Positions 12,455 to 56,943 of a stretch of 64,000 bases of DNA are shown here, one piece after another. The position numbers and the translations under genes were made by a program. Each line of letters opens with the position of its first letter. Positions within the stretch are counted from its first letter, which is position 1. The stretch comes from Marsupella aquatica (taxonomy: Eukaryota; Plantae; Marchantiophyta): assembly GCA_973895155.1 (NCBI GenBank), contig OZ316897.1:2743416-2807415 (forward strand). Direction: 5' to 3'. A model generated the notes under the pieces. That model ran no database searches and was not told the origin of the DNA. It worked only from the letters and a program-made list of their open reading frames with translations.

Positions 12455-12660
12455 AACTCCCCCTTGACTCTTGTCTTGGGGACTGGACTAAATGCTACCA
12501 TATGGAATCCTCAGCGGGAAGTTCCAGACAATCACCAAACCAGGTCTCCCCCTAAAACCACAAGGGTTAACTAAGGGTTAACTAGAACTAAGTCGTAGCC
12601 TAACAGGAATGAGTAATCCATATACAAATAGTCACACATTGTTAAATAACTCTACTTGCA

Positions 12661-18476: not shown

Positions 18477-18820
18477 TGTTGAGCATAGACGACATTCGCA
18501 ACGGCAAGCCCATGAACCATCCAACGCACAATAGTCGACATAGAGAGATACGTGGTTCACCTCCACATGAGGCTACGTCCACGGGAACACACAAGAGCTT
18601 TACTGCACTCTAGGCCGATCGGCCATACCAAGCATCCACAGCACAAGCTCTCCCTATCTCTCAACTAGCTCCGTAACAATGAGCCTAAGTTTCACCAGGG
18701 TCTAGCATCAGCCCTGGCTATATGCACAACATCACTACCGCTAACATTAGCTAAGTCCTAACCCGAGTTAGACTAACTGTGGTTAGCTCATGAGTCACAA
18801 GACTAGAGCAATATCTAACA
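18477..18820 (-). repeat. 5' LTR of copia element
   Basis: Direct repeat of 12111-12454, adjacent to the iMet PBS. Confidence 0.95.
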
Positions 18821-21800
18821 CTCTGATCAAAAGTGTTGTTGTCATCGTATCCCTAGCTATGGCCGCTGCAGCACATCTAAGCCAGCAGTCAATTGTTGAA
18901 GTTTGCACGAAGGTCAAACTTTAACTGCACACACAGCTAAAGAATGCAGCTGAAGTTAAGATGCAAAGTTCAGACACAACGTTTTCATATGTACAGAAAG
19001 GGGCAAAAAACATCGGGAGTTTGTGAGGGGCCCTTTGTAAAAACACAGTGCTCGGTGTGCTTACACAGAGGGGAAAGAACTTTGGGAGTTTGTGAGGCAG
19101 GGAGGAAAAACATGGGGCAGGTCTGTGAGGGACTTGGTGGCTGTTTGGCCTCCTCCCGGGTCTGAACAAAGGCCCCGAGCGAGAATGGGTCGCAACGGGG
19201 AAGGGGAAGGGGAGTTAATGGTAGGTTAATCCGGACCAATGATGCCTTGACACGTTGCACCGGGAACCCCTTGGTGGGTTTACACTAAGCCATATACGGA
19301 ATGGGGGACAAACTGACAAATAATTTGGTTTGGGGGACAAGGTATCAAATTTGGCAAGTTAGGTGGGCAGGGTAATAAAAAAGCATTTTATTGAATTGGG
19401 TGTCATTAATAAAATACATTGAATTAAAGTTTATGATTTTCATTGAATTGAGTGTCATTAATAATGTACATTGAATTAATAAATGCACACATTGTAACAC
19501 CTTTGTGTCATAGCACTTGACTCTACTGTTCATTGGTCATTCACTATGTGCTTTTCTTTACATGTGTTCTGTTTACATTATTTTATGATGAATGTACTTG
19601 CAAGTACCTTGAGGAGATCAAGGGGAAGACAGGATTGGATCATGAGAGCGGGCGTAGCGCTGCGCTGCAACGATGGTGTGGGGCAGGGCTGCCTCTTGTG
19701 CACGCCAAGGGGAGGGAAGGGAGTTGGGGTGATGATCTGGGGAGCGTCCCTAAACCCTAAACCCGGTTGGGGGGGCCATAATGGCGCTCTCCCCCTCTTG
19801 GAGGAGTGGCCGTGCATGCGGCCGGCCCTCCTCCCTCTTGGTTCGCTGTGTTGACTCGGGTTCCGTGGTGGTGTCTGGCTGCCTGGTGGTTGTTGGCTTT
19901 GGGTTTGCTGCGGAGTTTTCTGTGGTGGCTGTTGGGCTCACCCTGCTCGATACCGGGGCTGCCCTCTGCACCCTTGGTGGCCGGGCCAGGGGGTTGATGC
20001 CCCGGTTGCCGGGCTGGGGGGTTGGTGCTGCTGCCCCTGGGTTTCCACGTCGGGTAGTTGGTGTTACTTCCGGTTGACACCTTGGTCTGCGCTCCTGCCG
20101 GTTCTTCCTTGAAGTCCTTCCCGTCCCCCCCCCCCTTTATTGGGTTCTTTAATTTGCCTTTGGGTTCATGTCTCCTGGTTTGGCGTTCCTGTCGTTTTCT
20201 GGGCATAAGATATATATTCACACTTAATATGTATTCTTTCTACTCTTGTATTTTATTCACTTACATATCACTATAAGACAAAATATCAAGCATGTTCCAG
20301 GATGAGCATTCTATATAGGTTTCTAGATAATTCAATAAGTGTAAATACCCACCAATATGTATGTGTGTGGAAAAAGTTATGGAACCGTAAAATGCATGAC
20401 CATGAGAAGTTAGAGTATAGGCTTCTAGACAAGGGCCCCACCAATATGTATGTCATCATGGTGGTGTTCTTGCTGTGATCTGTGTTCTCACGAGGACATT
20501 CTCCATTGCTTTTTGGTCGTGTCCAATTTTTCAGAAGATCTGGGTTTGGATCTTTGCTATTATTCAGCGTGCTGTTGGGCTGAATGTTGCCATCTTCCAA
20601 TTTGAGGCTGTTCATGTTTTCTTGGTGCATCACTTCCACATAATTGTGGTATTCCTCTTAATATCTGGCACATTGTTAGAGGGAGTACTATCTGGCAGAC
20701 ATGGAAAGCTCGTTGTACTTTGGAGAAGGAAGCACTTCTACTCTCTGTCTTGTGTATCCAGAGCATCATCTGGTCAGAGATCCGTTTATGTTTACGGGTT
20801 ATTTGGCAGAACGGATGGAAAAACCATAAAGAGAAGCGTGATTGTTGGCAGGAGTTGGTTGGCAAGTTGAAAAGAGGCGGGTCGTGATGGAGGCCTTTAT
20901 GAGTTAATAGATGAATGCTTCATTGTTGATTACGGCCCACTATGGGCCTTTGATCCTCCTTGAGATCGTTTTTGTACCAGTCTATTGGTTTCACTTGTAG
21001 TTTGCTGTGATCCAGGGCTGAATAGTTCAGTTTCTTTTGGTTTTTATGTGGCAATTAGTTATTCCGTTAGTTGGATTTTCCCTGGTTTATAGATGCTCAG
21101 ATCTTGGTTATTGGCTGGATCTCTTCCTGTTCTCGGGCTGAGTTGGCCCTCATCTTTGCTTTGGCTGCTTAGCTGGTTTCTCTGAGTGAGTCACTCAGGG
21201 TCACACAGGTTACTTCCCTGTTTAGTTTAATCTTGTTCCCTTTCCCTCTTGGCTGAATGTTGTGGTCTTGGTGTGGATTCTGGCCTTTGTTCCTTTTTTG
21301 GTTCCCACCTGTGACTCCCTGGTTTTATTGGGTTATACTTGTCTTACAAGTAAAGTGCTCCTTTCAAGGAAGAAAAAGAAAATGTTATGGAACCTTAAAA
21401 TGCAAAAGGACGATCATACATGATGATTTTTATTATCATTTCTCATGATGATTGTTGGTATCATTTCTATGAGAGATATGATTGAAAACCTTTAAAATAA
21501 AAATCATTACTTGAGGGGCCCATGAGTGATCCACACCCTTGGTATGCCTGAAATGAACGGATCTAAAATCTCATGGGGCCTGTCCATAAAGTAACACTTT
21601 TTTTTTCACTTTAGGTGTCACAAGTATGAAGTATCTCTCTCATCATTTCTTTCATGAAAGTTCATCATTTCTGTTAACTTTCAGTCTCGGGCGTTCTCCA
21701 TATTCCATTTACGTGATGCACTCGTGACGGAGTCCCTCACGGAGCGGACCAGTAGTGGAGAGCATAGCTGGAAGCAAGAGAACGTCACGATGCGTGCAAT

Positions 21801-35685: not shown

Positions 35686-38600
35686 TCAGCCAAAACCCCC
35701 ATCAAAGCCGTCACCGCCACCTTGATTATTGCTCCTCTTCCTCTCTCTCCAATTATCGCCCCAAGCTCTAGCCTCTGCAACAGCCCGTTCACGTTCTCGA
35801 GATGGAGCTACTGATCTGTTATCTTTGGGAGTCCTACCTGTGTGCCCAGGACTGTCTCTTTGAGAATCGTATTTTTCCCATTCATCTGAATCCCTTTTTC
35901 TAGCTGTACCTGTATCGGAGCCCCGACTTCCATCGTAGGACCCATTTGTCCTCCCTCTTCCACTCTCCTTTGGTCGAAGGTCAGGTGATGCTGCTGAAAG
36001 ACTAGATGGAGATCGTGGACCCCCTTGCCTCCCACCTCTCTGACGTTCTTCTGTTAAAGGAAGCATAGGGCTGTTACCGTGACGCTCCGAATGACCACTC
36101 AGCTTCTTCTCTTTCTCTTTTTTCTCCCGAGAAGGTGTAGGTGGCGCAAACCTACTACTCCCGACTGGATGGAGACCGGGATCGTAGGTTTGTGACGCTA
36201 GATAACTAAGAGCAGTCACAACGTCGCCGATGAGTGGCCTGGTAGCAGCCTGTTCTTGAAGACACATTGCTGCTACGGCCAGAGCCTGATATAATCCTCG
36301 CATCGGATACCGCCCTTGTAGCATTGGATCTGCCATAGAAGGAAATTTCCGGCGGTCCTTGAAAAGTGGTCGTGCCTACAACCACAGCAACCACTTAGAG
36401 TCATTGAGCTTCATCAAAATCGTTCCCAAATGCTAAACCGTAACTGGACAACATAAATGAAACAGTCAAAAAGTTTGTTGACGCCATGAATTAAACCAAT
36501 CCCTCTTCATAGAAAGAATTCATCACCACAACCTGCTCGCAAAATCGACCCCTTAAAGAGCACGTCGCGTAGATACGAGGGTAAACAGGGACCGTAACCA
36601 AAGCCACGTTATGTCTAACTGCAGCAACTCTAGCAAAGCTGCTGTACAAAGTGAGAGAAAACTGTCTGGGATCAATAAAGGAAAACAATCTACAGACAGA
36701 AGTCCCGATTACTTCCTCATACGACTATCGAGAGAAGAATTTTTCCCAAGTGCCCCCATCTGACGATCGTTAAGATCGTTAGGTGACATCTTCATTCTTG
36801 CAACTGGTGATGCCTAGTATACAAATATAGCTACCAAATCTCAGCCGATATAGAATGTCGCGTCAAATTAAGAGCCTCCAGCAAATGACCCCTTTTCACA
36901 CTTTCAATCTCTCCGGCCCTCGACCAACTTTCAAATCACTTTCAAAGCATGGAATTCATTGGTGCTCAGTGACCATACCCAAGCCACGAGATTGTGCTCG
37001 CCAGCAGCCCTCGCATTGTCTATAGCCTTCCTTCCCGTGATCAGCTCCAACAAGACAACCCCAAAACTGTAAACATCCGACTTCAAAGTCAACTGCCCTG
37101 TCATAGCGTATTCCGGAGCACAGTAACCATAGGTTCCCATCACACGAGTGGAGACGTGAGTTTTATCTCCAACTGGCCCCAGTTTGGCAAGCCCAAAGTC
37201 TGACAACTTCGGGTGGAAATCTTCATCCAGTAGGATGTTGCTAGACTTGAAATCCCTATAAATAACAGGCGGATTGGCTTTGTCGTGCAGATATTCTAGT
37301 CCTCTTGCTGCTCCAGCTGCAATCTTCATTCTCGTGTTCCAATCCAAAGGTTCTTTATCGGGGGGTAAATCTGCATTCAATAACCCACCCAAATCGCACT
37401 GGTCAGTTTTGAGCTGCAATCTCGAAAACCAGTATGACCACCCACGATCTAATAAGCCGAAGGCGGTAAATACATGTACAAATTCAGGGCCATATTGATG
37501 TTGGAATGTATCTGGACCCTCATAAGAGATCGTTACAGCCGCTTGATGTTAACATTTAGAAACCCCTGAGATACAGTATCGATTGCGCAGCAAAATGAAA
37601 CGAAAAAGGCGACACAAAGTCGACTGGAGTACACTTTAAGATGGCTTTAACGTTAGTGGCAGATCTCACCATGCAAGTGATCCTCCAGAGACCCAAGAGG
37701 CATATATTCGTACACTAGCAGTCTCTGGTCCCCGTCAGCGCAGTAACCGATCAAATTCACGAGATTGGGATGGTGAAGGAGGCTCAACATCAACACTTCC
37801 ACCAAAAATTCACGATTTCCCTGAAGCCCATTCCGATCCAGCTGTTTCACAGCCACCACCTGTGGATGATTGCATTTGGAAAGTCAGGAAGGACATCGGA
37901 GTTCCATGGACAAACAATACGAACGCCAGGAAATGCCGACACAGTCTACAACTGTCCATTCTCGGAACCCTCTGACGCCTGGAATGTAAAGAATGAAAAG
38001 TCCCGAGGAATTCCGCAAAGAACTTGCCTGGCCAGTGCTCTCCATACGTCCCATGTATACCCGACCGAAACCTCCTTCGCCCAAGAGACATTCCGGTCTG
38101 AAGTTCTTCGTCGCAGCGGCAAGTTCACGGAAGGTAAATGTTTGTGCTGCAATATGGGTTGCTCCATCATTGTTCGGAGCTATGTTCTTAACATCACCCG
38201 AATTTCCTTTTCTGATCTTAAGATCTGCACCGTAAAAACCACACAACAAGTTAAAGGTGAGGAAGTACCAGAAATCCTACGCGGCACTAGAGTTTGCTAC
38301 CTACAGGCTTGATCCCAGTTCCTCACAACGTCACACTCCAGAGCAGATGGAAGACGACAGATCAGCCAAATCGCAGATCCGAAAGGCGAAGGAATGGTGC
38401 GAAGCGGGGTACAGAGACATCCCCCTGCCAAATAACCAGCTACTGGCAAAAGGGAAGGCAGCATTCAAGAATTAAACATCGCAGAGGGCACTTAAACCAC
38501 ATCAGGTCTTCTCCGGCAACATCGCAGCGCCAGGACACTGTCAATTAGACCACAGGGCCATGCGGCGTATGATGAACGAAGTCCGGCACAGTTGCGACCT

Positions 38601-40559: not shown

Positions 40560-41080
40560 GTCTACCCCGCCAGACCAGTCTAGAGCACCAGACCAGGCAA
40601 GGCTAGGCTGGGCCAGGCCGACCCTACCAACCCGAGAGCAGAGCCCGGACCGAGCCAGAACCCAGACTGAGCCCAGGCTGAGATGGAGCCCGCACTCCCC
40701 TAACCCAGACCGAGCCCAGAGGCAGACAGACCCCAGAACCAGCCCGAGCATGGCCCCAGGCCCAGATGGACACAGAGCCCAGATGGAGACAGAGCCCAAA
40801 CTCAGCCCAGACCCAAACAGAGCTCAGACCCAGCACAAACCCAGACCAAGCCCAGATCGAGCACACCAGACCTCACCCATTCCCAGTAATACTATTGACT
40901 AGAGGGCAGCAGTGGCTGTCAAAAACTCCTCCTGTACAGTAACTGAATGAATGATGTCAAAAACCCCTCCAGCTGCAGTCAATAGTCTACCCGGACCACA
41001 CCAGGCCAGATCACACGAGAAGAGCCCAGACCCAGACCAAGACCCTCCCCAGCCCAGCCACAGTGAGCCACACCCTAGCC
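40560..41080. repeat. Degenerate GC-rich short-period repeat (gagccc/cagacc units)
   Basis: Many agccc / cagac units upstream of the kinase gene. Confidence 0.45.
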
Positions 41081-43812
41081 TAGCCATTTTTTCCTCATGT
41101 TGGGAAGAACTGGTTTTTTTAGTCTTGGGCAATGTAGGGTGAAGTCATGAGTATCTGTGGTCTGAAGGAGGTATGATACCGTACGTTAGTCTTAGTAAAC
41201 ATACACACTTAGATCTGCCACAGTTTCAGGATGACCATCAGATCTAGCCACAAGTCTTAGACAAGGAAGATGAATGGCCAATTTTTCCAGTGTTAATTTT
41301 TTCTTGGCATTCCAAGACAAATTCTGGGCAAGAGTTTAGCAAAAATTTACCACTAAGAAAAACATGGGAACGGAGTGAGGGGCAACTTCCCTGCTTCCCC
41401 GCAAAGCTTTTTCCATCATAAAAATTCTGGCATATGCATGTGAGCCATTTTATTTCCCTAATTTCAGGAGAACCATTAGATCTGACAGCTAACTGTCTTA
41501 ATAAGATAAGGATGTGGCAAATAGAAGGGGAGATCTATCTCTAATATATTAAGTTGCCACAGATTTTCCAGGTATGTATAGGTAAAATATATATCCTAGT
41601 TTTGGCCCATATACAACGTTCAAACCCAGCCAATACTGATCACTACAGTCAGTGGAGCAGTAGTTGTAAAACCCCCCTTCTATACTGTTACAGTAACTTC
41701 ATGGAGATGTAGAAACCTCTATATAGTCTTGTAAAAACCCCGCCAGCTCCAGTAAAGTTGTGAGGGCAGATTCACTTGGCTGTGCATAGTAAAGCTACAA
41801 TAAATAGTGTTGTAATACAAAATCTGTCATATCAAAGAGAGACAGATTAAATTTGTTGAGCAAGAGCATCCCCACCCATCATGCCAATTCCAGGACACTA
41901 TTGGCCTAGGTAGGGGTAAGTTTAGATAGCTGTCATACATACAGGCGGGTGCACCCTGCTTGGAGCCCCACCCATCTTGGTTGACTGGAAGCTCTAGCAG
42001 CATTGGCATCAGAGGAGGTGAAAGTGACATTGTTGGGCATCTGTTGATCTCTTCCAGAATGGGCAATGTTGTCAATGTGTGATGGCGTGGTGCATAAGCC
42101 GGGATTCAATTCATGGCCGGGAAGTTGGATGGTGATAGTGGGCCACTGAGTGGGCAACAATGGATTATAGTTGTTTGGTTTGATTTGCAAATGGTGCCAA
42201 ACTTGCACCTGCCCAGACACTTTGAGGACAGGTGGGAATGCTCTAAAGTAAAGCTAGCTCTTGGAAGAGGGTGATATTCTTTTACATAAAAGCTTGTTGT
42301 AAGGAATTCCTCACAAGGACAATAACACAACCCTTCAAACTAATACACTATAAAATTGTTTGTATTGCATGTGATGTGAAAACGCACTTGTCCACATAGT
42401 TGATCACCTGCATTCTAAAATACATAGCCTGTCCTTACAGGCCCCTTCAATCATAGGTGCCTTTGTCACGAAAAGTGCATCCAAAATATGAGTATTCAAA
42501 GAAATGGGGGTTGCGTTTCACAAGAAATCAAGTGGATTGTGGAAAACCAAACCTTAAATTGATGAATGCATGATCTGAAGACCATTTCTATATTCCCTGT
42601 CCTCATCCTCCAGCCCCCTTTTGGGATCATGGGCAACTATTTGGTCGGTTACATTGTAGCAAGACAACCCTCCCCTGCTATACAACTTTTTTTCCAATTC
42701 TCCCATCCACATTTTGTAGCCATCTTCCAAGATCTGGGAGATGTTTGAGTCCATCAATGACTATAGAGCTTACTTAAGATTGGAACTTCAATTGGAACAG
42801 TGCCATTCTATTTGAGGAACTACCTAGCAGAGACATTGTCTTGCTTTGGACCAAGTTTTTTGAGAAAGTTTGCAAGAAGCACAATAACCTTGATGGGGCT
42901 CTATCATCTAAGCAATTCATAGCATTCTGAGGAAGAAACGGGGGAAGAAACTAGAAACGCACAATGTGAAATCAGGTAATCAAGAAATAATTTTTGACAT
43001 GACATGTTACCCTTTGTTCAAGCCGGTAGCTACTGCCTATGTGCTTGCTATAAAATTAACAGTGGAGGACGGCAGAGGCAAACTTGCCAAGGAAGAAAGC
43101 AGATTGTGAACCTGTTCGCTAACACTATTTTTGAAACAATGAAAGCTATGACTAATTGCACGTTGAATGAGTTTTGACCTGCATTGACTTGGAGGGGGGG
43201 CTGCAGGAGGACGGTGGAGATGGAGGAGGAGGAGCAACGTCTAGATTGACATTAACCTAAGAAAACAACTAGTGAGGCATTAGAGATTTAGTCAACATTA
43301 TATATAGTGCATAGTTTATGGCCATTATGTAGAGTCTAGATCATTATAGATTCATTATGTAGATTGTGATTAGATTATAAGCTTTTCAAGACTCAGCCAA
43401 GTGGACTTTCTTTGAAATCTCATTTGGACTTCCATATCATTTAGACTTGTGAGTCATCAAATTGTAAAATTTTCTTACATAATCAATAACTTTGATCTCC
43501 ATCTTTTTTTCTTTCTTTTTTTTCTTTATCTCCATCTTGGAATTTCTCCTTATGTAAAAGTCCAAAATTGTTTTCTCTAGCTCCGTTATCACTTATATAA
43601 CCCAGACTAGCCCTATGTTCATGCGTTGCACAGAAGATGTTGAGTCAAGGCAAGGATATCAAGGTGAGTCAAATTTGTCAAGGCAAAGCAAGTTTAGATG
43701 TCAAGGTGAGGCAAAGATGTCAAGACGAGAAAAGAAATGCAAGGGAGGCACAAAAGTGCAGGAAAGACAAAGAAATGTAAGCAAGGCCAAGAAGGCAAAA
43801 GAAATGTAGGTG

Positions 43813-45143
43813 AGGCCTGGAAGGAGATCACGATCCCAAAACATGTTGGCGGCTTAGGCATCCTCCCCTTCAATGAGATGGCACAAGCTCTTAAGATGCG
43901 ACACCTCTCGAAGCTCATCCGTGATGAGGGTTGTGAATGGGTGAGAATGGCACACATAATAATTGAGGACGGACTGAAGACTGGACCCAACAAAAAAGAG
44001 AGACGCAGATGGAGCGCAACGGAAGCAATCCTGTTGAGCGATGAGCTGGTTATCAAAGGGTCTACTACCCTTAAGGGCCTTCTCAAAGGGTGGTATGCAA
44101 AATGTACACACTTAACCTTTCACTTTGGGGTGGGCGAACTCCCGGACAGCTTGTCGATGGAACAAATGGTCCTTCTCTACACACGGGACATGCAATCAAC
44201 TAGCACGGAACAGGAGGGGAAGGAACTGAGAAGATACATGGCTAACCGCAGCATCAAACAAGCTACATACTGGTGGAACACACAGACTGGATGGCTGACA
44301 CAGGAGGCTCTCAACACCAAAATCAGAAGCAATAGACACAGAGGATACCCAGAATTCTCCAGATTCTACACTCTCCTAAGGGGATGCTCTGGCCTCTCCA
44401 CGGTAGGATTGCAGACGTGCAAAGGATGGAAATGGAAGTGGCAGGGCTGCAATCGGGGGTGGACTTTCCCCAACAAAGTGTGGACCAACTGTTCCCCACC
44501 AACCATCCAGGACCCCAATACTTTAAACAGAAGATGGGGGCAACAACGCACACCTGAACAGTGGAGCAAACTCTGGAAGCTACTCTGGAAGGGATGGACC
44601 ACACCGAATGTCAGGTTCTTCATTTGGAGACTACTACACCACGGTTTCTTCAACAACGGCAGAGGCAACAGATGGAAGGTCTGTGACGGAATATGTTCCA
44701 GGTGTAAGACTGACATTGAAACCACAAAACATTTGTTCTTCAGTTGCCCTAAGGTCCAAGATCGTTGGGGCGATATGCGCAGGCTGGTGCAGAGCGCCCC
44801 CTCGCTTTGATCCCCCGCTCACTTGCTTTTTGAGGCCATCTATGGTGCCATCATTCGGCAAAAAAGGAAACCGGGCCCTGTTATTATGATAATGGAGATG
44901 TGTAGCAATATCTGGAAAGAGAGGAACGCGGCCACGTACTCTCAATTCCTTGGGCATCTCCCAGGGTGGGTGACTCTCAGACATACAGAAATGCACCTGA
45001 GAGCTATGCTCACCTACTGCAATTCCAACAAAAAAAAGAAACAGGTCAGGACTGCTCTGGATCATCTAAACATCATCCTTGCCCCTTGGGAGAAGACTGA
45101 CAGCCCCATTGCTCTCAACTCTCTCAACTATGAAGATCGATGA
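43813..45143 (+). pseudogene. 5'-truncated L1-clade LINE ORF2 C-terminal region (zf-RVT)
   Basis: AWKEITIPKHVGGLGI, FIWRLLH, CSRC..IETTKHLFFSC and NIWKERN are plant L1 motifs. In-frame stop at 44808-44810. No RT core present. Confidence 0.85.
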
Positions 45144-45695
45144 TTTTGGTGAATGTGGTTTTAAGCCCGAGCGGCACTTCTGTAGGAGTGATAGGTGGTA
45201 TGATATTGTTCACATTGTTGACTACGTTAGAGATAGGTTTATGGTTGTTATGCGTAGGGACACTCATTTTACGAGTGTCTGGACTCCTAAGGACAGCCAA
45301 TAGAGGAATTATGAGTATCTTGTGTACTTACACCCTCCGTATAGGGGTAGAATTGCTAACGGACATTTTTACAGAGACCGTGGGGTGAATGGCCGCACGT
45401 GGCTGCCCTCTGTCTCTTGGCCGGATTAGGTTGTTTGGCTTGCTGTGCTCCCGGGGCGGCGGTTGTCCCTGGGTTCGCGTCTGTTTTTTTCTCTCTTGAG
45501 CGGGGTTCTCCCCCGGTTCCCCCCCCCCAAAAAAAGAGGAAGTTGTTGAGATATTTGAGGTGTTGTTACAACAATTTTGCCCCAATATGTTGTTGCTGCT
45601 ATGCGGTCATGCAACCATGTTTTTGTTGCCAAGCTCAATTCTCAAACATTGCACAGGAAGCTGGAGGTAAAGTAAAGAAGTGCACACGAGGCCAA

Positions 45696-46052
45696 TGTCA
45701 TGCCGAGGGACAGTGCCTCCTGTGCACATCGGCATGTCCCTCGCATGCCCGCTAGGTATGTAGTTAGGGCTAGTGTACTAATTGAGTTAGTGTCATGTTT
45801 TTGTAGCGAGTCTGGGTCATTCTTGAAGCAAAGGTGTTTGTTAGTGTGATGCCTGGACCCGGTCCTACTTAGGGCATGTTTTTCTTTGTCGTTTTTCAGT
45901 TCTTCTTGAACGCTGTTGACAGAGCTCAGACAGTGCTTGTCGGTTCAGTACACGGGATTCACACAGTGATTCGTTAGATGCTCCCGGCCGATCTTGGCAT
46001 CCCGCCGGTTTTCGATTCGATTTCAGTACGATTGTTTCTCTTACGCCTTTTA
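45696..46052 (+). repeat. Terminal repeat A1 (357 bp)
   Basis: Direct repeat of 55065-55422, about 10 differences counted by eye. Confidence 0.93.
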
Positions 46053-46066
46053 TTCAAGAAGAACTG
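46053..46066 (+). promoter_or_regulatory. Self-priming type PBS
   Basis: ttcaagaagaactg directly after A1 is the exact reverse complement of cagttcttcttgaa (45897-45910) inside A1. Confidence 0.72.
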
Positions 46067-49000
46067 GTCGAGATAGTGGTGAAGGGAAGAAGATTGCTCG
46101 TGACAATTTTGACAATTTCTGGTGAAGCCATTGCAATTTCTTCGACAGACATCGGAGTGACGAGTTAAAAGTTATGGGTTTATTATGGTGTTATGTGTAT
46201 ACTTAAGTGTATACACATAACAAGGGGCCCAGATTTTTCTTGCCTGCCGCAACTCGATCTGCTTCCATAATTGCTTTTGACTATGGCTACTGACTGCTGA
46301 CCTTTTTTGGGCCATATTCGGTGTTTTCCGGTCGCAGCGCGACCACCTTCCCTTCCCCTTACATTTTGACGACCCTTTGGGGTCCTGTTCTTTCTTTTCC
46401 ATCATCGGCCGTCATTTCTTTTTGCCTCCCCTTGCAGCTACCGTTGCGAGCTGCCTCCCTGTCCTGCCTGTGTATACACATGCGGGGCTCATCATTGCCC
46501 CTGGGTTGCGCATAGGGCCATGCGCCCTCCCTTCGGCGTTTTTCTTCCTCCCTCGCCTGTTTCCAGCAATTACACAGTAGGGAAGGGGGATTAAGTTGAG
46601 GCATAAGCATGGAGAGGGCACGAGGCCCTATTATGCATTAAAGCAGGGGCAAGGGGGAGGTGAAAGCAGGAAGGAGGGGGAGCGAGTGTTAGGAGAGGGC
46701 ACCAAGCCCTATGTTGCATTAAAAGGAGGGGGAGGGGGAGTTCACATACGACTCCCTTCTCTAGGGAGTACTTTCACCAGGGCACGAGGCCCACAGAAGC
46801 ATTTAAGGAGGGGATTGAGGGGGAGTTCGTAGCCTCCCTCTTCGAGAGCTCATAAGGAGAAGGGGGGGGCGCGAAGCCCTATGCTGCATTAAACGGAAGG
46901 GGAGTACATTCAAGCCAGGCACGAGGCCCACAGCGCATTTAAGAGGGGAGGGGGAGCTCATAAGGAGAAAGGGGCGCAAAGCCCTATGCAGGGCTCGAGC
47001 CCATTAGGGGCCGTTTCTTTTTCCTTGCCTCGCCCTTTTATTTTTGCCTCGCTTTCGCTTTTATTCGCTTGCAGCATATCGCACGGTGCCCCCGAGTGTG
47101 TATACACACTCGCTCGGTTGCCGGTCCCCACCTGATTTTTCTTTTCGTCGACGCGCACCTTCTGTCAGTTTCTGGGTCCACGTCGGGGCCGACATATACA
47201 CTTAAGGGGGCCCCTCTTTCACGTTTTTTTGGCCATTTCTTTGCGGATTTCTTTGTTGCTGCCGACGGTCATCTGCATAGGGTTGCGGGCCCGGGGTATA
47301 CACATGGGATGGCAATCCAACATTGCCTATGTATACACATAGGCAAGTGCGACGGGGACACAATTTGAGGTTTTAAGGGTCCTTTTCCCTGATGGTCTTT
47401 CGACGGTGACGGGTTTTCTCAGTCTTTACACATTTTGCACATTTTGGGTACATCGGGTATTGTCACACAGCATGTCAGTAGACGAGCCAGGAGGTAGCAG
47501 CTCATCACCACCAACACCCCGGTACCACTTACGGAGTGATCCACGACCCTTGGTGCCAATTTCATTGGAGTCTCGGCAATTTCGACGACGTCCGCAGACA
47601 GCAGCAGCACCCACACCACGCAATCCTTCTGCTCAATTTGGCGGTCGCTTCACCACAACCCCGAAACCTGCTATCACTTCCTTGCCATTTACCCCTTCTG
47701 CATCAGTGGTTGTTCCAGCTTCACCGGCATACAGCATGGATGCTAGCCACTCATCTGGCCGCATTGAGCGCTTCAGCGGGCGGCCAGGCACTGTTTCTTT
47801 GCGTGAGTTCAAATCCACTTTCTATACTATTGTTTACAAATTGGAGTTGAAGTACGGCAACAATTTCACAAATGCTTTTGCATTTAAGCAACTAGCCAGG
47901 TATGTGCACCATGAGGCTTTGGATGTGTATGAGCAGCACTCTCAACGGCTGCTTGCTGTCACACAATTGCCTAATCCTACCTATGCTAGTGCAATTGCAG
48001 CTGCCTCACAACTGGCATTACAGAATGCCATTGCAGCCCATGCTGCTGCTCCTGCTACTTCCCCTCCTACTCCAGTTCCTACCACTGCGCTAGTTACTCC
48101 CATTGTCTTGGCACAGGCTACATCAGGCATTTCTCCCACTATTGATTCTCCTGCCTTTGCTGATCCAATGGCTGAGTTTTTTCAGGTTCTTGAATTGGAA
48201 TTCCCAATCAAGAGTGCTGACAAAATCATGCAGTTGGCTACCTTTGTGAGGCAACGCGATGAAACATTGAAGATGATGTATTGCCGGCTTCTCAAGCTGA
48301 AGGAGGACACCCAGAGCATCACTGACCTAGAGGCTACGCATCGCTATCTTCGTGCATTGGAGGGCACACCAGCTCTCCATTCGCAAGTGTTGCAGCAAGT
48401 ATTCTCAGAGTTTGGAGACAGCAACACATTGCTCAATGTCTATGACACTGCTGAGAAACTTGAGTTGGCCCATGCACATTATGAGGCCAGTATTGCGCGT
48501 CCACTGCGCGATCCAAGTACTAGGTTGCTGCCCCTACATTGGCCACCCCTTCCCGTTTGCCATAATATGGTTCCAAGACCAAGCCAGCACATGCTGCTTT
48601 CATGCTACCATCTTGTAACTACTGTGATAACCCTAATCACAAGGCTAATGATTATGATATTGTTGCTGAGGACCTGTCTTGTGATTTTTGCGGGAAAGTG
48701 GGCCACTTGGAGGCAGTTTGTTTTGCCAAATTCCAAGAGAGGAAGTAGCTACGACAGCAGGCCCCTCATCCTGCTCCTGCTTCCACTCCCCCACCAGCTA
48801 GGAGGGCTCCTATTGCCTTAGTTTCTCCTCCTTCCAGTGGCAAAGCACCCGGGGCCAACAAATTGCCCAAGCAGCAACAGAAGCAGCTAGCTCAGAAGGA
48901 GGCTCACAACGCACAGGCAACTCAACTCCAGTCTCTGACTCATGAGGTTGAGTCCCTATGTGCCCAACTTGCCAACATCAAAGGCAAGTCACCTGCCTCT

Positions 49001-50584
49001 GCTGGTCCCTCTCAACCGGTTGGTCACGTGCAACCGATCCCTGGCCCAGGCACCACTGACAGTTCAGCACCTCTTCCCCGCTCTTTCTATGGCTTGCCAT
49101 TTGATGCTCATAGGGGTGAGTGTGTGCTGTCCTCTACTACACAGCCTGGCCTTATGGCAGAATTTTCAGATTCATTCTGCCCTTCCTATTTTGCTTACCA
49201 GCAGGCCAGTGTTGCCTCCCGTATTGCTCCCACCCGCCGCATTGTACAGGCTAATGGTCTTGCTGCTGGTCCTATGACTAGAGCCAGGGGAGCTCGGGCT
49301 GTCATGCCCCAATCTTTTCAGCCACTCATACTTGTTGAAGACTGCACCTTGTTGGCGAGGGGGGAGGGAGCTGCAGCTACATCCATTCCACCACCAGGTG
49401 CTACTGACATTTCACAGGGAGTTGTTTCTCCTGAGCTGCTTGAGCATGTCACCTCCGGTATGGCACAAAGGATTCTTACAACTCCACTTTTCAGTTGCCA
49501 TGATTTATAGCTGGATGCTAGAGCTGTCATCAGAGCACTAGAGGGCTCACTGCATTCTTCATCAGCCCCTGTGACACCGGTTTTGGAGGTCCAATCTCAT
49601 GTACATACTGGACCTTCTTCTTCTCCATTACATGCTTCCACTGGTTTGGCTATCCCAGTACCAATTTCCAGTGGTACAGATGATAGTATTGTTGCAGATT
49701 GTGTGACCAGAGCTACAATGGATTCTGGTCATGCTGCTCCATCTTTCCTAGCTATGTTGTTGAGTGGGAAGACCGTGGACACTAACTCCCTTCACAAGGT
49801 ACCTCATCATTTGCCAAAAGTGGTGCCTAGTGACAGGACTTTAGTTTCCACCACCATTGCCATTGTTGACAATAGGAATTCAGTGGTCAAGTTGGAGGGT
49901 CACACTCCTCAGGTGGTCATGCTAGACACAGGCGCTCAACCAGTGATATTGGGCATTCAATTTGCCAAGAAGATGGGACTACTGACTGATCATTTACAGC
50001 AATCCAGGTGGCACATTCGGACTGCTAGTGGCACTGTGGAGGATGTGCTGGGTGAGAGTTCTACTTTACTCACTTTCACTTTTAATGGAGGTACAGATCA
50101 GGAATTGCATTTCCCAGTCAGATATTTGGTTACCAATGCCACTACGTATGATGTGCTCATTGGCCAGGAGGCTTTGTTCCCACCAGGTTTTACCATTGAC
50201 AACTGGCATGAGCATGCATACTACAGAGTTGATTGGCATACGGATGGCTCACACTTGGGCTACATTCCACTTGATTTGCATGGTGCTCATACACCTATGG
50301 CTCACCACTGTGTGTTGAAAGCAGTGCACACAACTACCTATGTCAACCACCCATTGTAGGATTGGATTGAGGAGGATGATGATGAGGTGGTTGCTGCACA
50401 TGCTGCTACACGTATAGCAGCACTTTCCATCAACGTGGATCATCAACCAGAGGTGGTACAACGGCTCCAAGCAGCCCATGGACCTTTGGTGGCTGCATTG
50501 CGCAAATTTGAGGACCTTGGGCAGCACAATGGCCAACCAATAGCCCCAATCTTGAGCGCACCAGTTACATGGACTCCTCCTTGA

Positions 50585-51510
50585 GATGGCCTTACATTGC
50601 TTGAGCTTTTTGGTGGCATTTCTACAGGCCTGGAAGCTCTCCTACAGTCTGGCATGGTGGTGAAGTAGTACATCTATGTGGATATTGATCCAGGTGCAAG
50701 GCAAGTGGCTGAATCCCGTCTACTGGAATTTTTAGAGCGATTTCCCTAGCAGTTTCCACACAATGCATGGAAGTCTGCATTTTCTTTCTTCCCTCCAGAT
50801 ATCCAGCTTGTCCAGCACCGGCACTTAACCCTTCTTGGTTCCCTTGATTTGATCATAGCTGGTTGGGAATGCCAAGGGTTTTCAGCTGCTGGTCACGGTG
50901 CTGGACTGCATGATTCTCGTTCTGGCCTTTTCATAGCATTGGTTCAGATTCTCACCTGGGCTCAATCCCTTTATCCTGCTGTTGGTTATATCATTGAGAA
51001 TACTCCATCTCAGTTTGACCAGCGTCCACAGGTGAAAGAGGATTTCAGTGTGGTCCAGCACTACTTGGGACCACCCCTTCTCATTGATGCAGTGCACTGT
51101 GGTTCTTATGCACATCGTTTTCGTAACTTTTGGACTAACCTTGCACCACCTTCCTTGTTGGAGTTAGCTCTTCACCACACATCCAGGGACACTAACCTCA
51201 CAGTGGACCAGATTTTGGATCCTGACAGTTCTTGCCAACTAGTTACACGACAAGAGTCAGCACCTTGGTATCCAGCCAATACCATTGGACAGCCCCATGC
51301 TGCTTGGCCTACATTTGTGTCCTTTCCAGGTGCACATGCTTTTCAGGGTGATGGTCCTGGCCTGGTTTACCGACATTCTACCGGTACATGGGATGAACCT
51401 AGTCCTGAGGAGAGAGAACGGGCTATGGGCTTGCAATCCGGTACTACAGGCCACACCCACATCACCAGGCTGGCCAGGAATGCTTTACTTGGCAGGGTAA
51501 TGGATCTCAC
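50585..51510 (+). pseudogene. C5 cytosine DNA methyltransferase domain (DNMT3-like motifs) within pol
   Basis: Same frame as PR and RT. Motif I LLELFGGISTG, II YVDID, IV DLIIAGWECQGFSAAG, V DSRSGLF, VI YIIENT, VIII AHRFRNFWTNL, IX PEERERAMG, X RLARNALLGRV. Stops at 50666 and 50747. Confidence 0.88.
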
Positions 51511-54500
51511 TGCTCTCACTTGGCTTCTGGTCACTTGCATCCTTTTTCAGATGTACATTCATCCAGCATCAGGAGTTCCAGCCCTACCACTCCATGGTGC
51601 TGCTACATGGCATCCAAACCAGGTGCACTTACCTCTATTCAACACTCACCGCTTCAGTCCAAGTGTTGGGGGGGAGGAGGTCCCTTGTAATGTGGCTGAC
51701 ATTATTTCTGAGTTTCATCGTGTGGATCAGACCAGAGCAACAAGTACAACAGGCCTTGGAGAGGCCTCATCACCTTATCAGCAGCATGCTAGCAGCTTGG
51801 ACAGTGGAGAGGCTGGCACTTCTGGCTCTTCAAGCATGAGTACATCAGGTCCTATTCCTAGTGTTGCCAACTACACATTCATCATGGGCAACCACTTGAG
51901 TAAAAGATAGAAGGACCAGCTGCTGAATTTGCTCCTCAAGCATGAGAACGTGTTTGCTTTCTCTATGAAGGACTTGGGTAAGTGCAAGACTATGCAGTTC
52001 TCCATTGAGTTGGCTAATGAAACACTTATCTTCAGGCGGAGACATCGTTTGAGTAAGCATGAGTGGCAGCTGGTGGATGAGAGGTGCCAAGAGTTATATG
52101 AAGCTGGTCTTATTCAGCCATCTACATCAGATTTTGCAGCAGCTACAGTGATGCCAGCAAAGAAGGATTCCAGTGGATTGTGGACAGAGAAGCGCATGTG
52201 TGGGGACTACAGGCCATTGAACCTGGTCACACCCCAGGATAGGTACCCCATGCCACGGCCAGAGGAGTTATTTGACAGGATTGGAGACTCAGACATCTTC
52301 ACTCTTGTGGATCTAAGGCAAGGCTTCAACCAGATTTTGCTGTTTGCAAAGGATCGCAAGAAAACAGCTTTCCATGGTAGTAACCAACTATGGGAGTGGT
52401 TGGTGATGCCATTTGGCTTGAAGAATGCGCCCATATTCATTCAAAGAGTCATGGACCAGGTTCTTCAAGGTGCTGAGTTTCTGAAATGCTACATTGATGA
52501 TGTGTTGGTCCACAACAAAGGATTTGACCAGCATCTACTTGACCTTGAGGAGCTATTCATGAGGCTTAAGAAGGTGAACCTAAAGATACACCCCAAGAAG
52601 TGTGAATTTGCTGTCAGATCAGTAGTATATCTTGGGGATCGCATTCTTCCAAATGGAACCATGGCTCACTGGGCCAAGGTGGTATCCATCTTGGAAATGC
52701 CCACTCCTACCGATGTTCACACTTTGAGGAGTTTTATTGGGTTGTGCAATTACTATCGGATCTACATCAAAGATTTCAGCATCATTGCACACCCATTGTA
52801 TGCTTTGTTGAAAAAGAATGTGACTTGGACATGGAGTATAGATGCTGAGGCAACATTTGCCACTTTGAAGGAGAAGCTCTCAGAATACCCGGTGCTGAGA
52901 AGACCTAATTTCAGCAAGGTCTTTGTGCTACACACAGATTGGAGTGCCCTTGGGATTGGTGCCATTCTGGGCCAGCATGATGAGGAAGGTAAAGAATACG
53001 TCATTGCCTATGCATCCAGGAGCAACAATCAGGCATAGAGTCATTATTCTTCTTATGAGGGTATGCCTTGCTGTTGTGTGGGCTGTCATACATTACAGAC
53101 CCTACCTCTATGGGACCAGGTTTGTTCTCTACACCGACCACCAGCCCTTGAAGTGGTTGATGACCAACGAGAAGCTTGCTCGTTGGGCGCTCATACTCCA
53201 GGAGTATGATTTTGAGATAATTCATAGGCCTGGTGTGACACATCAAAATGTTGACACTATGTCCCGCAGCCCTTTGATTGCCTCTGATGATTCCTCAGAT
53301 GCACGACAGGATTTCGACCAGGTTTCCATCCTGCCTACATTTCATGCATCTACCTATCTTGCTTTGCTGCCATGCTACGTTGTTGACCAACCTGTGGTGG
53401 ACATATGGGAGGACAACGACACTCTGAGATTTTTGCAGCATGGGGAGTACCCCATACATGTTACTGCTGCCCAGAGAGACCAAAATCAGCAAAGGTCCAA
53501 GCGTTACTTGTGGAAGGGAGATCATCTCGTGCGCTGCTTGCCAGACAAGGAAGTGGTGGTTCCACCCATTTATGAGAGGGTTGGCCTTATCCGTAAGGTA
53601 CATTCTGAGCTTGGTCATTTTGGCGTTAAGAGGACTTACAGCCTCTTGGTCCCTCATTATCATTGGAGAGGCATGCATGGCCAGGTTCAAGATGTTATTG
53701 CCCGGTGTGAACAGTGTGATAGGGTGAGGACTTCTTTTACATCTCGGCAACCCACACTTCATCCACTCCCTATTCAGGGCATGTTTTATCGTTGGTCATG
53801 TGATTTGGCTCGAGAATTACCCCTCACATCTCGGGGTAATCTCTACATCATGATCATGATAGAGCATTTCTCCAAGTGAATAGAACTTGTGGCATTGCCG
53901 GATAAGACCTCCCGTAGCACCAGCCTAGCATTCCTACAACAAGTTCTCAGCCACTTTGGAGCTTGTGCAGAATGTCTCACTGACCAAGGCTCAGAGTTTA
54001 GAGGAGAGTTCTAGGAGCTGCTTGATCAGGCCGTCATTGATCATCGTCTGACATCACGAGATCACCCACAGGCAGATGGCTTGGCAGAGCGCATGGTTCA
54101 GACATGCAAGAAGGGTCTCCAAAAGATTTGCCTCACCAAAAACAAGGAGGATTGGGACCTGGCCTTACCCTACATTGCCATGGGGTATAGGATGTCTAGA
54201 CATGCATCATTGTCTAACTTTTCTCCCTACTTCTTGTTGTTTGGTCGTCACCCAGTTCCACCTTCTGCTATTGCTGCTCACATGCTTCAGGTGGTGGACT
54301 TGGATTCAGTTGTGACTTGGTCTGATGTGATCTCTGAGAGGGCTGCCCTATTCAGGAGGGTTATGCCCATGGCCATGGAGAATTTGGCCATTGCACAACA
54401 TAGGGACACATTGCGTTATGCACACACACAAGGGGGCACTTTTCAGCCCAAGGTCAGGAAGTTTGATGTGGGAGATTTTGTGTACTTGCAGCGGCAAGCT

Positions 54501-54695
54501 AACGACACCTTGGACACCTCTACCAGTCGTACTATTCTCAGGGTTAAAGCTATTCGACCGTCTGGAGTGCTAGAGTTACAAGGGGCAGATGGGCGCACAA
54601 TTGTTGACAATGCCAAGAATTGCGCCCCTTGTCATCTGCCTAACTTGGATCCCACCATTGTGACTTCTACCTGGATTCCACTTGTGGACTACCCT

Positions 54696-54830
54696 TGCAA
54701 AGTGTGTTTGCGAATTGATGATGCTGACCAGATGCTGCTGTGTGATAATTGCAATGGAGGGTACCATCTTTTTTGCCTTCAGCCTGAACTTACCCAGGTG
54801 CCAGAAGGGTTATGGTTTTGCCCTTCCTGT
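54696..54830 (+). other. PHD finger at integrase C-terminus
   Basis: C4HC3 pattern CKVC...MLLCDNCNGGYHLFC...VPEGLWFCPSC. Confidence 0.9.
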
Positions 54831-54887
54831 GCTCCATGTACTACCTGACTTTTCTTCAGCCCTCCTTTTGGCTGTGGTCTGGGGGGA

Positions 54888-55062
54888 TACAGAGGTTTAC
54901 ACCTCCACTACGTACATACCACCGTAGTTGCTTTTTCTTGGCACTTGTGAATGTGATTGGACTTTTTCTAAGGATGTTGGTTGCTAGCAGCTTGCACATA
55001 TGCATTGCCGGTGACTTGTATGTTTTCGATACACTATGGCTACGATACTATATGTCATGACA
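54888..55062 (+). repeat. Repeat B1 (175 bp), preceded by short PPT gggggga (54881-54887)
   Basis: Direct repeat of 55423-55597, about 6 differences. Ends catgaca. Confidence 0.92.
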
Positions 55063-55064
55063 AC

Positions 55065-55422
55065 TGTCATGCCGAGGGACAGTGCCTCCTGTGCACATCG
55101 GCATGTCCCTCGCATGCCCGCTAGGTATGTAGTTAGGGCTAGTGTACTACTTGAGTTAGTGTCATGTTCTTGTAGCGAGTCTGGGCTGTTCTTGAAGCAA
55201 AGGTGTTTGTTAGGGTGATGCCTGGACCCGGTCCTACTTAGGGCATGTTTTTCTTTGTCGTTTTTCAGTTCTTCTTGAATCGCTGTTGACAGAGCTCAGA
55301 CAGTGCTTGTCGGTTCCGTACACGGGATTCACACAGTGATTCGTTAGATGCTCCCGGCCGATCTTGGCATCCCGCCGGTTTTTGATTCGATTTCAATACG
55401 ATTGTTTCTCTTACGCCTTTTA
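55065..55422 (+). repeat. Repeat A2 (358 bp)
   Basis: Direct repeat of 45696-46052. Starts tgtcatg. Confidence 0.93.
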
Positions 55423-55597
55423 TATAGAGGTTTACACCTCCACTACGTACATACCACCTCAGTTGCTTTTTCTTGGCACTTGTGAATGTGATTGGATTTT
55501 TTCTAAGGATGTTGGTTGCTAGCAGCTTGCACATATGCATTGCCGGTGACTTGTATGTTTTCGATACACTATGGCTATGATACTATATGTCACGACA
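55423..55597 (+). repeat. Terminal repeat B2 (175 bp)
   Basis: Direct repeat of 54888-55062. Ends CA and is followed by the TSD ccaa. Confidence 0.92.
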
Positions 55598-56943
55598 CCA
55601 ATAAGTTTTGTAGTTTGGCTGTGTCTCTCATGTAGTGACGCTATGGTTGCAAAGGTGTCATCATTTTGGTTGAGTGCATCTTACTGCCAAAATATTGTCA
55701 TTTTGATCAATGGTGTTGCTACAAACTTGATATTGAGGGGAGTGACGGCACGAGAAGGGGATAGTAGCACAAGATGGGCAATGGCGGCGGGGCATTGCAG
55801 GGTCCAAGGACAGGTCCACACTTGGCCTATCTTTTCAGTGCTACATGGAGGGATAAGTTTTTTTTTCATTTTTATCTTTATTTCCCTCCCCCACACCCTC
55901 TCGCTCCCTCACTCCCACCCTTTGCTGTCACCACCATCTTCTCTTGCGTATTGTAGGCAGAATGGAGCCTTAAGGAGGGCACATTAGGGAGGGAGGAGGC
56001 ACACGTGGTGAGCCAAGGCATACAAAGTGCACAGAGATGGCAGGGAAGAGGGGATTAATGGTTTTTTTGGTGAATCAAATTGTTCGAAAACAATGGGGTT
56101 CCAACAGACAGCCATAAGTTTATTGTGATTTCATTGTGAAAAATGTTGTCATTGCACATAATCAATTGATGCAGTAAACTCAAATCAACACAAAAGCCGG
56201 GGATAGAAGGCTCAAATGGGTAGTGAGAATAGGGGCAAGAGTCAGGTTAGAAATCGGCAGTGTCAATGATACAGAAGATGGAACAAAAGCAAGGGATGAA
56301 AGGTGCAATTGGGGCAAAGCCAGAGCAAGACTAACACAGATGCCGAGGCATGTCAAGCAAGCTAGGTCTTGGAAAAAGAATGTAGGGAGCTTGGTCTAAT
56401 CCTGGGTCTTATTGGCCCACATTGAAAAAGCTTGTCTTTATATTAAAGGTCTCTAAGCTCATCTTTAAGAAGAATGTTGGAAGTTTAGATGGAAGAACAA
56501 AATTTTGGACTTTTTCTCTAAAACTTTAAAATGATAAAACAAAGTTTTAAATTTTTTGAAAAACCAGACTCACACTTTTTTTGTTTTATTCATTTTGGGG
56601 AAAGGCCTTGATGTTGTTGTAAAAGTGATATAGTAGGGGAGGGCAAGAGAGAGTGGGAGGAGCACAGGAGAGGCTATGGCCACCAGGGCTTTGTGAGTTC
56701 AAGGTGTGCTTGCACGATGCTATGTGGAGGGAACATCTTCAGTTTTTCCCCTCTTTCCAGTTTTCCCTTCCTTGCCCCTCAGTTCTCCCCCCCCCCCCCC
56801 ACTTTGTTCCATTTGGCACGACCAAACAAATATAATAAAAAGATAAGGAGTAAATAACTTATTATTTTTATAAGTTCCCGTACTCAAAAAGCCAAGCCTC
56901 TCATGCCCTAAAAGATTCTCATGCAAACGTACTTAAGTTCCGG

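Follow-up and report, generated by a model that had tools for sequence, protein, structure and literature searches.

What does a retrotransposon gain from carrying a cytosine methyltransferase in its polyprotein? Why transposons should carry such enzymes has been asked since 2018, and the sole Gypsy case was low-copy and algal. The 64,000-nucleotide stretch of DNA from the liverwort Marsupella aquatica analysed here (the window) raises the question for a land plant. An earlier note, made from the letters alone, had placed a C5-methyltransferase (DNMT) between the protease (PR) and the reverse transcriptase (RT) of a broken Gypsy copy. At issue are the identity of this domain, its retention, its origin and its possible role.

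Architecture of the element

The element is a Ty3/Gypsy retrotransposon at 45696-55597 that starts with TG, ends with CA and is flanked at both ends by CCAA. Its repeats have the split layout A-coding-B-A-B; these split repeats, absent from the earlier note, tie the element to the algal KnitGypsy element. Its features are as follows.

45692..45695, + strand: left copy of the target-site duplication, CCAA, a 4-base repeat flanking the element
45696..46053, + strand: repeat A1, TG start, left element end; 9 mismatches in 358 bases against A2
46054..47471, + strand: 5' leader with purine-rich, imperfect short tandem repeats at about 46.6-47.0 kb, whose number and length vary among run contigs
47472..48750, + strand: gag, frameshifted here near 48.5-48.6 kb; no Pfam match; 24% identity (E 1e-7) to the Gag of protein P0014
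49886..50299, + strand: aspartic protease (protease models, motif), with the DTG motif within 49919-49936
50585..51550, + strand: DNMT3-like C5-cytosine methyltransferase domain (Pfam, HMMER, fold), unpermuted, with GWECQ as motif IV and ENT as motif VI
51911..52840, + strand: reverse transcriptase (Pfam, motif), YIDD at 52490-52501; a stop lies directly upstream at 51908
52841..53250, + strand: RNase H (RH; Pfam), interrupted twice, by stop 53036 and by a frameshift close to 53.06 kb
53574..54545, + strand: DDE integrase (INT) with HHCC finger (Pfam, motif); stops at 53877 and 54012
54696..54830, + strand: PHD finger ending the integrase (PF00628, E 1e-11); natural stop at 54846-54848
54878..54886, + strand: G-run abutting B1, likely the polypurine tract; a G-rich run occupies the same place in 7/7 complete relatives
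54887..55062, + strand: repeat B1, CA end (repeat comparison)
55063..55064, + strand: 2-base spacer in the near-palindromic B1/A2 junction (CA-nn-TG type), probably an integrase site left uncut; a 2-base spacer is present in 15/15 relatives shown
55065..55423, + strand: repeat A2 (repeat comparison with A1)
55422..55597, + strand: repeat B2, CA end, right element end; 6 mismatches in 176 bases against B1
55598..55601, + strand: right copy of the target-site duplication, CCAA, a 4-base repeat flanking the element

With stops read as X, the frame 48749-53038 encodes, according to Pfam, first the protease, then the C5-methyltransferase and RT, and last the beginning of RNase H; the next frame encodes RNase H, integrase and the PHD finger. 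In the former, RVT_1 matches with E 2e-25, and two protease models score 24-26 bits, slightly below their cut-offs. The methyltransferase model PF00145 exceeds its gathering cut-off of 22 bits in this stop-repaired frame, with 26-28 bits (E 2e-6 to 8e-6) for the window copy and 40.5 bits for a natural relative, L003. The placement of the domain between protease and RT, in the frame of the polyprotein, is thereby borne out.

The Gypsy domain order PR-RT-RH-INT is present, with a DDE integrase. Membership among the DIRS, PAT or Ngaro elements was considered and rejected on account of the rve integrase and the target duplication, in place of a tyrosine recombinase. Neither a chromodomain nor an adenine methyltransferase gave a Pfam match in the element; no tRNA gene was found within the 64-kb window, and no tRNA primer site was identified. 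The PHD finger resembles those of the chromatin readers WSTF, CHD4, KDM5, ATXR5 and BAZ2B, several of which read unmethylated H3K4.

This copy is dead. The stops to which the earlier note attributed its inactivation amount to nine premature ones (49508, 50357, 50582, 50666, 50747, 51908, 53036, 53877 and 54012), and two frameshifts, in gag and in RNase H, add to them. The insertion is fairly young, because A1 and A2 differ at only 9/358 bases and B1 and B2 at 6/176.

Elsewhere in the window, a young Copia element with a few stops lies on the minus strand at 12111-18776; its repeats, at least 300 bases long, are 99% identical to each other. The inverted repeats around it (11139-11460 and 19062-19381, about 320 bases, 83-92% complementary) may belong to a DNA transposon into which another element was inserted. 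On the minus strand at 35689-37548 lie the exons of a host kinase (Pkinase, Pfam), which we take to be PBS1/PBL-like; a search with the kinase tail led no further than Streptophyta. The 3' fragment of a LINE with zf-RVT (43710-44810) adjoins the element on its left. At 689-2343, two identical 149-base repeats surround an RNase H fragment (1249-1863) that has no Pfam match and is presumably Copia-like, with little CpG loss. Degenerate short tandem arrays with periods of 17-19 and 35 bases are found at 4682-5698, 40625-41063 and 43632-43756, and the array of 5.3-5.7 kb recurs at 43.6 kb.

Identity of the methyltransferase domain

Motifs I to X were located at 50603-51499, in the canonical, unpermuted order that had been read from the letters:

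50603-50620, + strand: motif I
50675-50689, + strand: motif II
within 50846-50884, + strand: motif IV (GWECQ)
50990-51004, + strand: motif VI (ENT)
51110-51142, + strand: motif VIII
51407-51430, + strand: motif IX
51467-51499, + strand: motif X

The proposed start of the domain stands, whereas its end moves about 40 bases beyond 51510, to about 51550. Stops 50666 and 50747 fall inside the domain, and 50582 lies directly 5' of it.

By sequence, the closest solved relatives of the window copy are DNMT3A/B/C (E 5.5e-7). A family profile of 70 sequences, most of them about 30-45% identical to the first row of the alignment, matches DNMT3A/B/C with E 7e-26 (DNMT3A, 94 bits), compared with E 3e-15 to 4e-12 (49-59 bits) for DRM-type enzymes and E 4e-10 (42 bits) for M.HhaI. 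The fold agrees: an AlphaFold2 model of the stop-free domain of L003, built with 70 sequences (pLDDT 97.1, pTM 0.93), aligns with DNMT3A/B from end to end (Foldseek E 1e-19 for DNMT3A), with Z 29.9 and an rmsd of 2.4 over 269 aligned residues, against Z of at most 26.2 for bacterial enzymes. Both strings that had been likened to DNMT3 earlier lie within the HMMER alignment, but the likeness of RLAR is partly luck, most relatives having RLER.

Two other identities were rejected. The domain is not a DRM, since its motifs run from I to X without circular permutation; DRM chains align by their C-terminal part to the N-terminal part of the family profile. Nor is it a host plant DNMT3: RT follows the domain, which is therefore not a stand-alone gene, and there is no Pfam match to DUF3444, the C-terminal domain that host plant DNMT3s carry according to the accessible text of PMC6453930.

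The SAM loop, the catalytic Cys, the Glu-Asn of motif VI and the Arg-x-Arg of motif VIII are all present; across the 70 sequences, conservation of the Cys, Glu, Asn and one motif VIII Arg is complete or at least 90%. The Pro before the catalytic Cys is absent, being replaced by Glu in the window copy and in 75/80 related loci, while Marchantia and Klebsormidium-type relatives retain it. To our knowledge, a Pro directly before the catalytic Cys is near-invariant in C5-methyltransferases, and the P-C form is seen both in DNMT3A and in phage enzymes. We found no report on the effect of this Pro-to-Glu exchange in the literature searched.

Retention and selection across the family

Of 256 relatives detected in metagenomes, 80 loci were kept, some of them apparently the same copy from different samples; having been fished with the methyltransferase domain, these loci cannot reveal domain-less sisters. 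They appear to be peat-moss-like, their proteins being close by eye to a named Sphagnum magellanicum record, and the family of the window is distinct from them, because synonymous sites are near saturation between the two. The order PR-DNMT-RT-RH-INT-PHD recurs at conserved spacing in the 80 loci. Where a locus had room, PR was found in 63/66, RT in 67/68, RNase H in 59/59, integrase in 54/54, the PHD finger in 47/47 and Gag in 47/51.

The catalytic Cys is kept in 79/80 loci, the Glu before it in 75/80 and the Trp in 67/80, the other 13 having stops there; motif VI has its Glu in 71, its Asn in 78 and its Thr in 75 of the 80. The W-E-C and E-N-T forms, which the earlier note had pointed out as departures from the usual context and from ENV, are thus family traits and not decay. 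The two in-domain stops of the window copy are private or rare, recurring in 0/76 and 4/74 loci, and only 2/80 loci have at least 300 stop-free codons in the domain.

Median dN/dS between the window copy and the loci is 0.11 for the methyltransferase, compared with 0.10 for PR, 0.08 for integrase, 0.05 for RT, 0.14 for Gag and 0.21-0.31 for the linkers; dS is near saturation in these comparisons (pS about 0.7), and 67/80 of the methyltransferase pairs are unsaturated. Unsaturated pairs of loci agree: the domain gives 0.10 at dS 0.97 for L001-L003, where the PR-DNMT linker is conserved as strongly as the domain, and 0.09 for L003-L004. The pair L002-L003 gives 0.40, from few changes. Among L002-L080 the medians are 0.40 for DNMT, 0.37 for RT and 0.48 for integrase; values of about 0.4 in such young, decayed loci reflect decay and are silent on recent selection. 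Judged by a Ka/Ks limit of 0.2, the domain is under purifying selection in distant pairs, at 0.07-0.11; in young decayed copies the value is about 0.40, as for RT. Lack of an HMM match, absence of the domain from sister copies and neutral evolution, which the earlier note had named as the outcomes that would speak against it, were not observed; the domain is retained in 80 loci.

Read depth over the element greatly exceeds that of its flanks in four sequencing runs, which come from two studies. Single contigs of run X2 have depths of 1,022-1,207 over DNMT, 1,292 over PR and 1,334-1,497 over integrase, with flanks at 15-25; these are single-contig depths, and summed depths are not a copy number. 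The high-depth X2 contigs over the domain retain ECQ and ENT, and high-depth contigs lack stop 50747 and the RNase H frameshift. Differences between the window copy and the run contigs are mostly of the deamination type. Natural relatives encode Gag, PR, DNMT and RT in one frame (P0004, P0139).

Relatives, range and trees

Proteins of the same kind occur well beyond Marsupella. Calypogeia fissa has a PR-DNMT relative (66%) and an RT 85% identical to that of P0002; further named relatives come from Sphagnum magellanicum and S. compactum. In Marchantia polymorpha, the annotated gene MARPO_0091s0058 (P0400) has the order PR-DNMT-RT-RH with W-P-C and ENV; it is not named in the literature searched. 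A Closterium relative has DNMT-RT with W-E-C. Klebsormidium nitens has RT-INT(-PHD) proteins in the same RT clade, and P0014, which shares a 90% cluster with a K. nitens record, has Gag-PR-DNMT with F-P-C, ENV and a homologous Gag.

In the RT tree (161/167 rows) the relatives group together, and the Gypsy RTs of fungi and arthropods stand outside this group. The window copy groups with Calypogeia and the peat-moss-like copies (0.997), its position between the Calypogeia protein and the peat-moss-like copies having weak support (0.59), and these RTs group with the K. nitens proteins (0.81). A search with RT for domain-less sisters returned many proteins that begin just before RT.

Searching 50% representatives without a profile yielded 1,356 clusters at E of 0.001 or less, 183 of them at 1e-30. 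In the best 150 of the 1,356 representatives, the domain stands after RNase H or before integrase in 83, before RT or after protease in 15, and alone in 52; integrase follows without RT between them in 67. In P0187, P0191, P0201, P0230, P0232, P0147 and others, a DNMT3-like domain follows RNase H and precedes integrase; a PHD finger and a C-terminal domain come next. The full order RT-RH-DNMT-INT-PHD with this tail is found in 15 of the best 150, and P0147 adds a chromodomain. Judging by a motif, we take the C-terminal domain of the P0187-type proteins, which has no Pfam match, to be adenine-methyltransferase-like. A further set (P0007, P0010, P0011, P0013, P0016, P0162 and P0165) joins protease to DNMT, with F-P-C and ENV, and ends after the domain; some of these proteins have long unrelated N-terminal parts.

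In a tree without host DNMT3, all domains from retro-elements cluster to the exclusion of five phage enzymes (support 95.6). Both DNMT trees recover the integrase-side group as a clade, and they differ in where it attaches: midpoint-rooted FastTree parts protease-side from integrase-side domains (0.96), whereas the phage-rooted fast IQ-TREE nests the integrase-side domains beside the window family (100). For IQ-TREE every fourth integrase-side row was taken (22/85), and the DNMT trees drop rows with fewer than 230 or 200 aligned residues.

Repeat layout and integration products

Among the 46 loci of at least 9 kb, both repeat pairs were found in 7 and the B pair alone in 8. The 4-base target duplication, exact in the window, is exact in 4 of the 7 complete relatives, has one mismatch in 2 and is lacking in 1. 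The 3' LTR of LTR elements begins after the polypurine tract, and B1 directly follows the G-rich run in 8/8 complete copies. The A2/B2 join is precise in 3/8 copies and altered by small indels in 5/8, as expected of joined cDNA ends.

The 40 relatives with room at the 3' end have B-A-B in 18 cases, B alone in 20, B-A in 1 and none in 1; the 30 with room at the 5' end have A alone in 24 and none in 6. The A-coding-B copies, which lack a direct repeat, include L028, L037, L039, L052, L058, L061, L065 and L071, and may stem from circles with a single LTR or from recombination of B1 with B2 after insertion. In L045 a further A+B unit, resembling a solo LTR, stands by itself about 8 kb downstream.

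The repeat data fit a model in which a circle is cut at the B/A palindrome and integrated. It should be noted that the mirror product A-B-A-coding-B is absent from all 24 5' ends with a repeat (30 with room), which the simple circle model leaves unexplained, because a randomly cut two-LTR circle should also yield that form.

A possible role for the enzyme

In working copies the DNMT domain would be made and packaged with Pol, as its sharing of one frame with RT suggests. Reverse transcription would yield LTRs of the form B+A, with B from the G-run and A ending at the leader; the cDNA ends would then be joined into a circle, the source of the variable A2/B2 join, and integrase would cut the internal B/A palindrome, giving A-coding-B-A-B with a 4-base duplication. 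The circular intermediate may give the enzyme time to act, and the PHD finger would steer integrase to chromatin. A pre-methylated insert would go unrecognised as foreign DNA or be kept quiet. Each part of this model has its own standing. The domain of working copies is predicted, with some confidence, to be catalytically active, because the SAM loop, Cys, Glu-Asn and motif VIII Arg are retained over long distances. If the enzyme is active, cDNA would quite probably be its substrate, being the simplest candidate, as was likewise proposed for SymbioDIRS-Dnmt3 in the accessible text of de Mendoza et al. (2018; PMC5890265, from which we cite accessible text throughout). That the element's own cDNA, probably circular, would be methylated by the domain before integration has, in our opinion, close to an even chance, though a little short of it. 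The Glu in place of Pro, the silence of the Klebsormidium enzyme in yeast and the lack of a clear CpG mark count against the model. As to the last, the CpG observed/expected ratio of pol is 0.25, compared with 0.33 in the Copia of the same window, which lacks the domain, and 0.33 in L003; CpG depletion was rejected as a mark of self-methylation, not being distinguishable from this control.

These same points bear on the possibility that selection maintains a domain with little or no catalytic activity, which binds DNA or SAM, coats the cDNA or decoys the host methylation machinery. The exchanges of Pro for Glu in motif IV and of Val for Thr in motif VI would suit such a protein, as would the occurrence of xEC in 82 of the best 150 distant representatives, a CpG loss no greater than that of the neighbouring Copia, and the Klebsormidium enzyme, which gave no methylation in yeast, a result its authors deem inconclusive (PMC5890265). 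We nevertheless hold it to be fairly unlikely: binding alone need not keep the Cys, which like the Glu, Asn and motif VIII Arg is invariant or at least 90% conserved, and P-C and E-C forms are mixed through the DNMT tree, which fits a tolerated exchange. Alternatively, an active enzyme might work mainly after or around insertion. It would then methylate the target site, the copy once integrated or other host DNA in trans, and the PHD finger might guide it where cleavage of the polyprotein is incomplete. The likeness of that finger to chromatin readers points this way, as does the sister group with the domain directly before integrase, near the integration machinery (67 of the best 150). In the window family, however, RT and RNase H separate the domain from the PHD finger, and the protease would probably free it; the Klebsormidium methylome is not unusual (PMC5890265); and an effect in trans would help other elements too, which would make long retention harder to explain. 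We consider action after insertion unlikely, and prefer methylation of the cDNA before it.

Two further alternatives concern how the domain was acquired. A one-off or neutral capture of a piece of host DNMT3 by the window copy or a recent ancestor accords with the broken state of this and most related copies, and is refuted by the same position and length of the domain in 80 loci at dN/dS of about 0.1; the same position in Calypogeia, Marchantia, Closterium and the Klebsormidium-type protein, and the lack of introns and of a DUF3444 match, leave it next to no probability. As regards the source, a phage or bacterial DNMT3-like C5-methyltransferase is a more serious candidate, since of five phage enzymes the best three reach 75-80 bits against the family profile, not much less than DNMT3A, and the algal clade has been called divergent (PMC5890265). 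Against this, DNMT3A/B come first by both sequence and fold, the phage enzymes are 24-29% identical (ten rows shown) and phage and plasmid matches 24-35% (rows shown), and the published tree puts the algal elements with Dnmt3 (PMC5890265); an origin of this kind therefore seems improbable. DNMT3 is, judging by these comparisons, the best source for the domain, if not the only possible one.

Known systems and significance

The Klebsormidium precedent invoked in the earlier note is correct. KnitGypsy-Dnmt3 of Klebsormidium nitens (de Mendoza et al. 2018, PMC5890265) is a Gypsy element with a Dnmt3-related domain in its polyprotein, DIRS-like repeats and purifying selection. With the window element it shares the Gypsy domain set, an unpermuted and intronless Dnmt3-related domain, the A-coding-B-A-B layout, which is spelled out for SymbioDIRS and said to be matched by the Klebsormidium element, and purifying selection (PMC5890265). 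P0014, which serves here as a proxy for KnitGypsy-Dnmt3, has the Gag-PR-DNMT order and homologous Gag of the window family, but differs in having F-P-C and ENV rather than W-E-C and ENT (P0014-type domains are 35-37% identical), and in ending after the domain, where the window-family frame runs on into RT (P0002, P0139). The window family is further set apart from KnitGypsy-Dnmt3 by its land-plant host and high abundance.

Other known systems are more remote. SymbioDIRS-Dnmt3 of Symbiodinium likewise has a Dnmt3 domain in Pol and A-coding-B-A-B repeats, and its domains methylate CG in yeast; it is a tyrosine-recombinase element of a dinoflagellate, whereas the window element has a DDE integrase, protease, PHD finger and 4-base target duplication (PMC5890265). 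Cellular DNMT3s (animal DNMT3A/B and moss PpDNMT3; PMC6453930, accessible text) have the same fold and motif order as the window domain, which differs from them in its 21-27% identity, E-C instead of P-C, longer insertions, lack of a PWWP/ADD or DUF3444 match and location in a polyprotein. The EpiLTRs and DAM-LTRs of Cymbomonas and Euglena are also Ty3/Gypsy elements with DNA methyltransferases and a chromatin reader; in the accessible text of the preprint (bioRxiv 10.64898/2026.05.21.726589) their DNMT is sister to DNMT4 and accompanied by DAM and a chromodomain, and they are kept apart from the streptophyte Gypsy-DNMT3. The DNMT4-like enzyme of the EpiLTRs also distinguishes them from our integrase-side relatives of the P0187 type, whose domain is DNMT3-like. 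A PHD finger in a Gypsy element is not peculiar to this family: REM1 of Chlamydomonas is reportedly one such element. Chlamydomonas Gypsy-7a_cRei has a PHD finger in Gag-Pol, and its figure legend does not include a methyltransferase (PMC9940879, accessible text).

The earlier note regarded such enzymes as not standard in land-plant Gypsy lineages. We found no report of a land-plant Gypsy-Dnmt3 in the accessible text of the literature searched; preprint supplements could hold land-plant records. None is reported in the accessible text of PMC10952607, PMC12885004, PMC6317226, PMC8566409, PMC11982613, PMC6453930, PMC4157794, PMC8557442, PMC6673714, PMC9940879 or bioRxiv 2021.11.30.470311. The accessible text of PMC6317226 mentions no such methyltransferase for the plant Gypsy lineages of REXdb (Phygy, Selgy, Tcn1, Chlamyvir, OTA). 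"Streptophyte" Gypsy-DNMT3 is mentioned, with citation of PMC5890265, in the accessible text of bioRxiv 10.64898/2026.05.21.726589 and PMC12344493. The view taken in the earlier note needs qualifying in that the lineage appears to be old and common to several bryophytes and streptophyte algae.

By the sequence evidence, then, the domain is real and under selection, and the element is of the KnitGypsy-Dnmt3 kind. That kind is known from Klebsormidium; notable here are the land-plant range, the abundance, the Glu-Cys motif and the permuted repeats. The family occurs in land plants, in high abundance and under selection; one relative, MARPO_0091s0058, is annotated in Marchantia polymorpha, a species for which genetics and methylomes exist. 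The family raises the question of whether Glu can stand in for the conserved Pro of the C5-methyltransferase catalytic motif. LTR finders would miss half of the related copies, because the A-coding-B form has no direct repeat, and bryophyte DNMT gene counts may include such elements.

A wider picture can be drawn only tentatively, and we think it rather doubtful that all of it holds: an undescribed Gypsy lineage across green plants would have kept an active DNMT3-type Glu-Cys enzyme since before land plants, moved the domain between two places in Pol, added an adenine methyltransferase in some branches, and integrated from end-joined circles that are methylated and cut at an internal palindrome. 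If true, de novo methylation in mosses and liverworts would have a second source, carried by transposons, of which Marchantia polymorpha would possess a copy.
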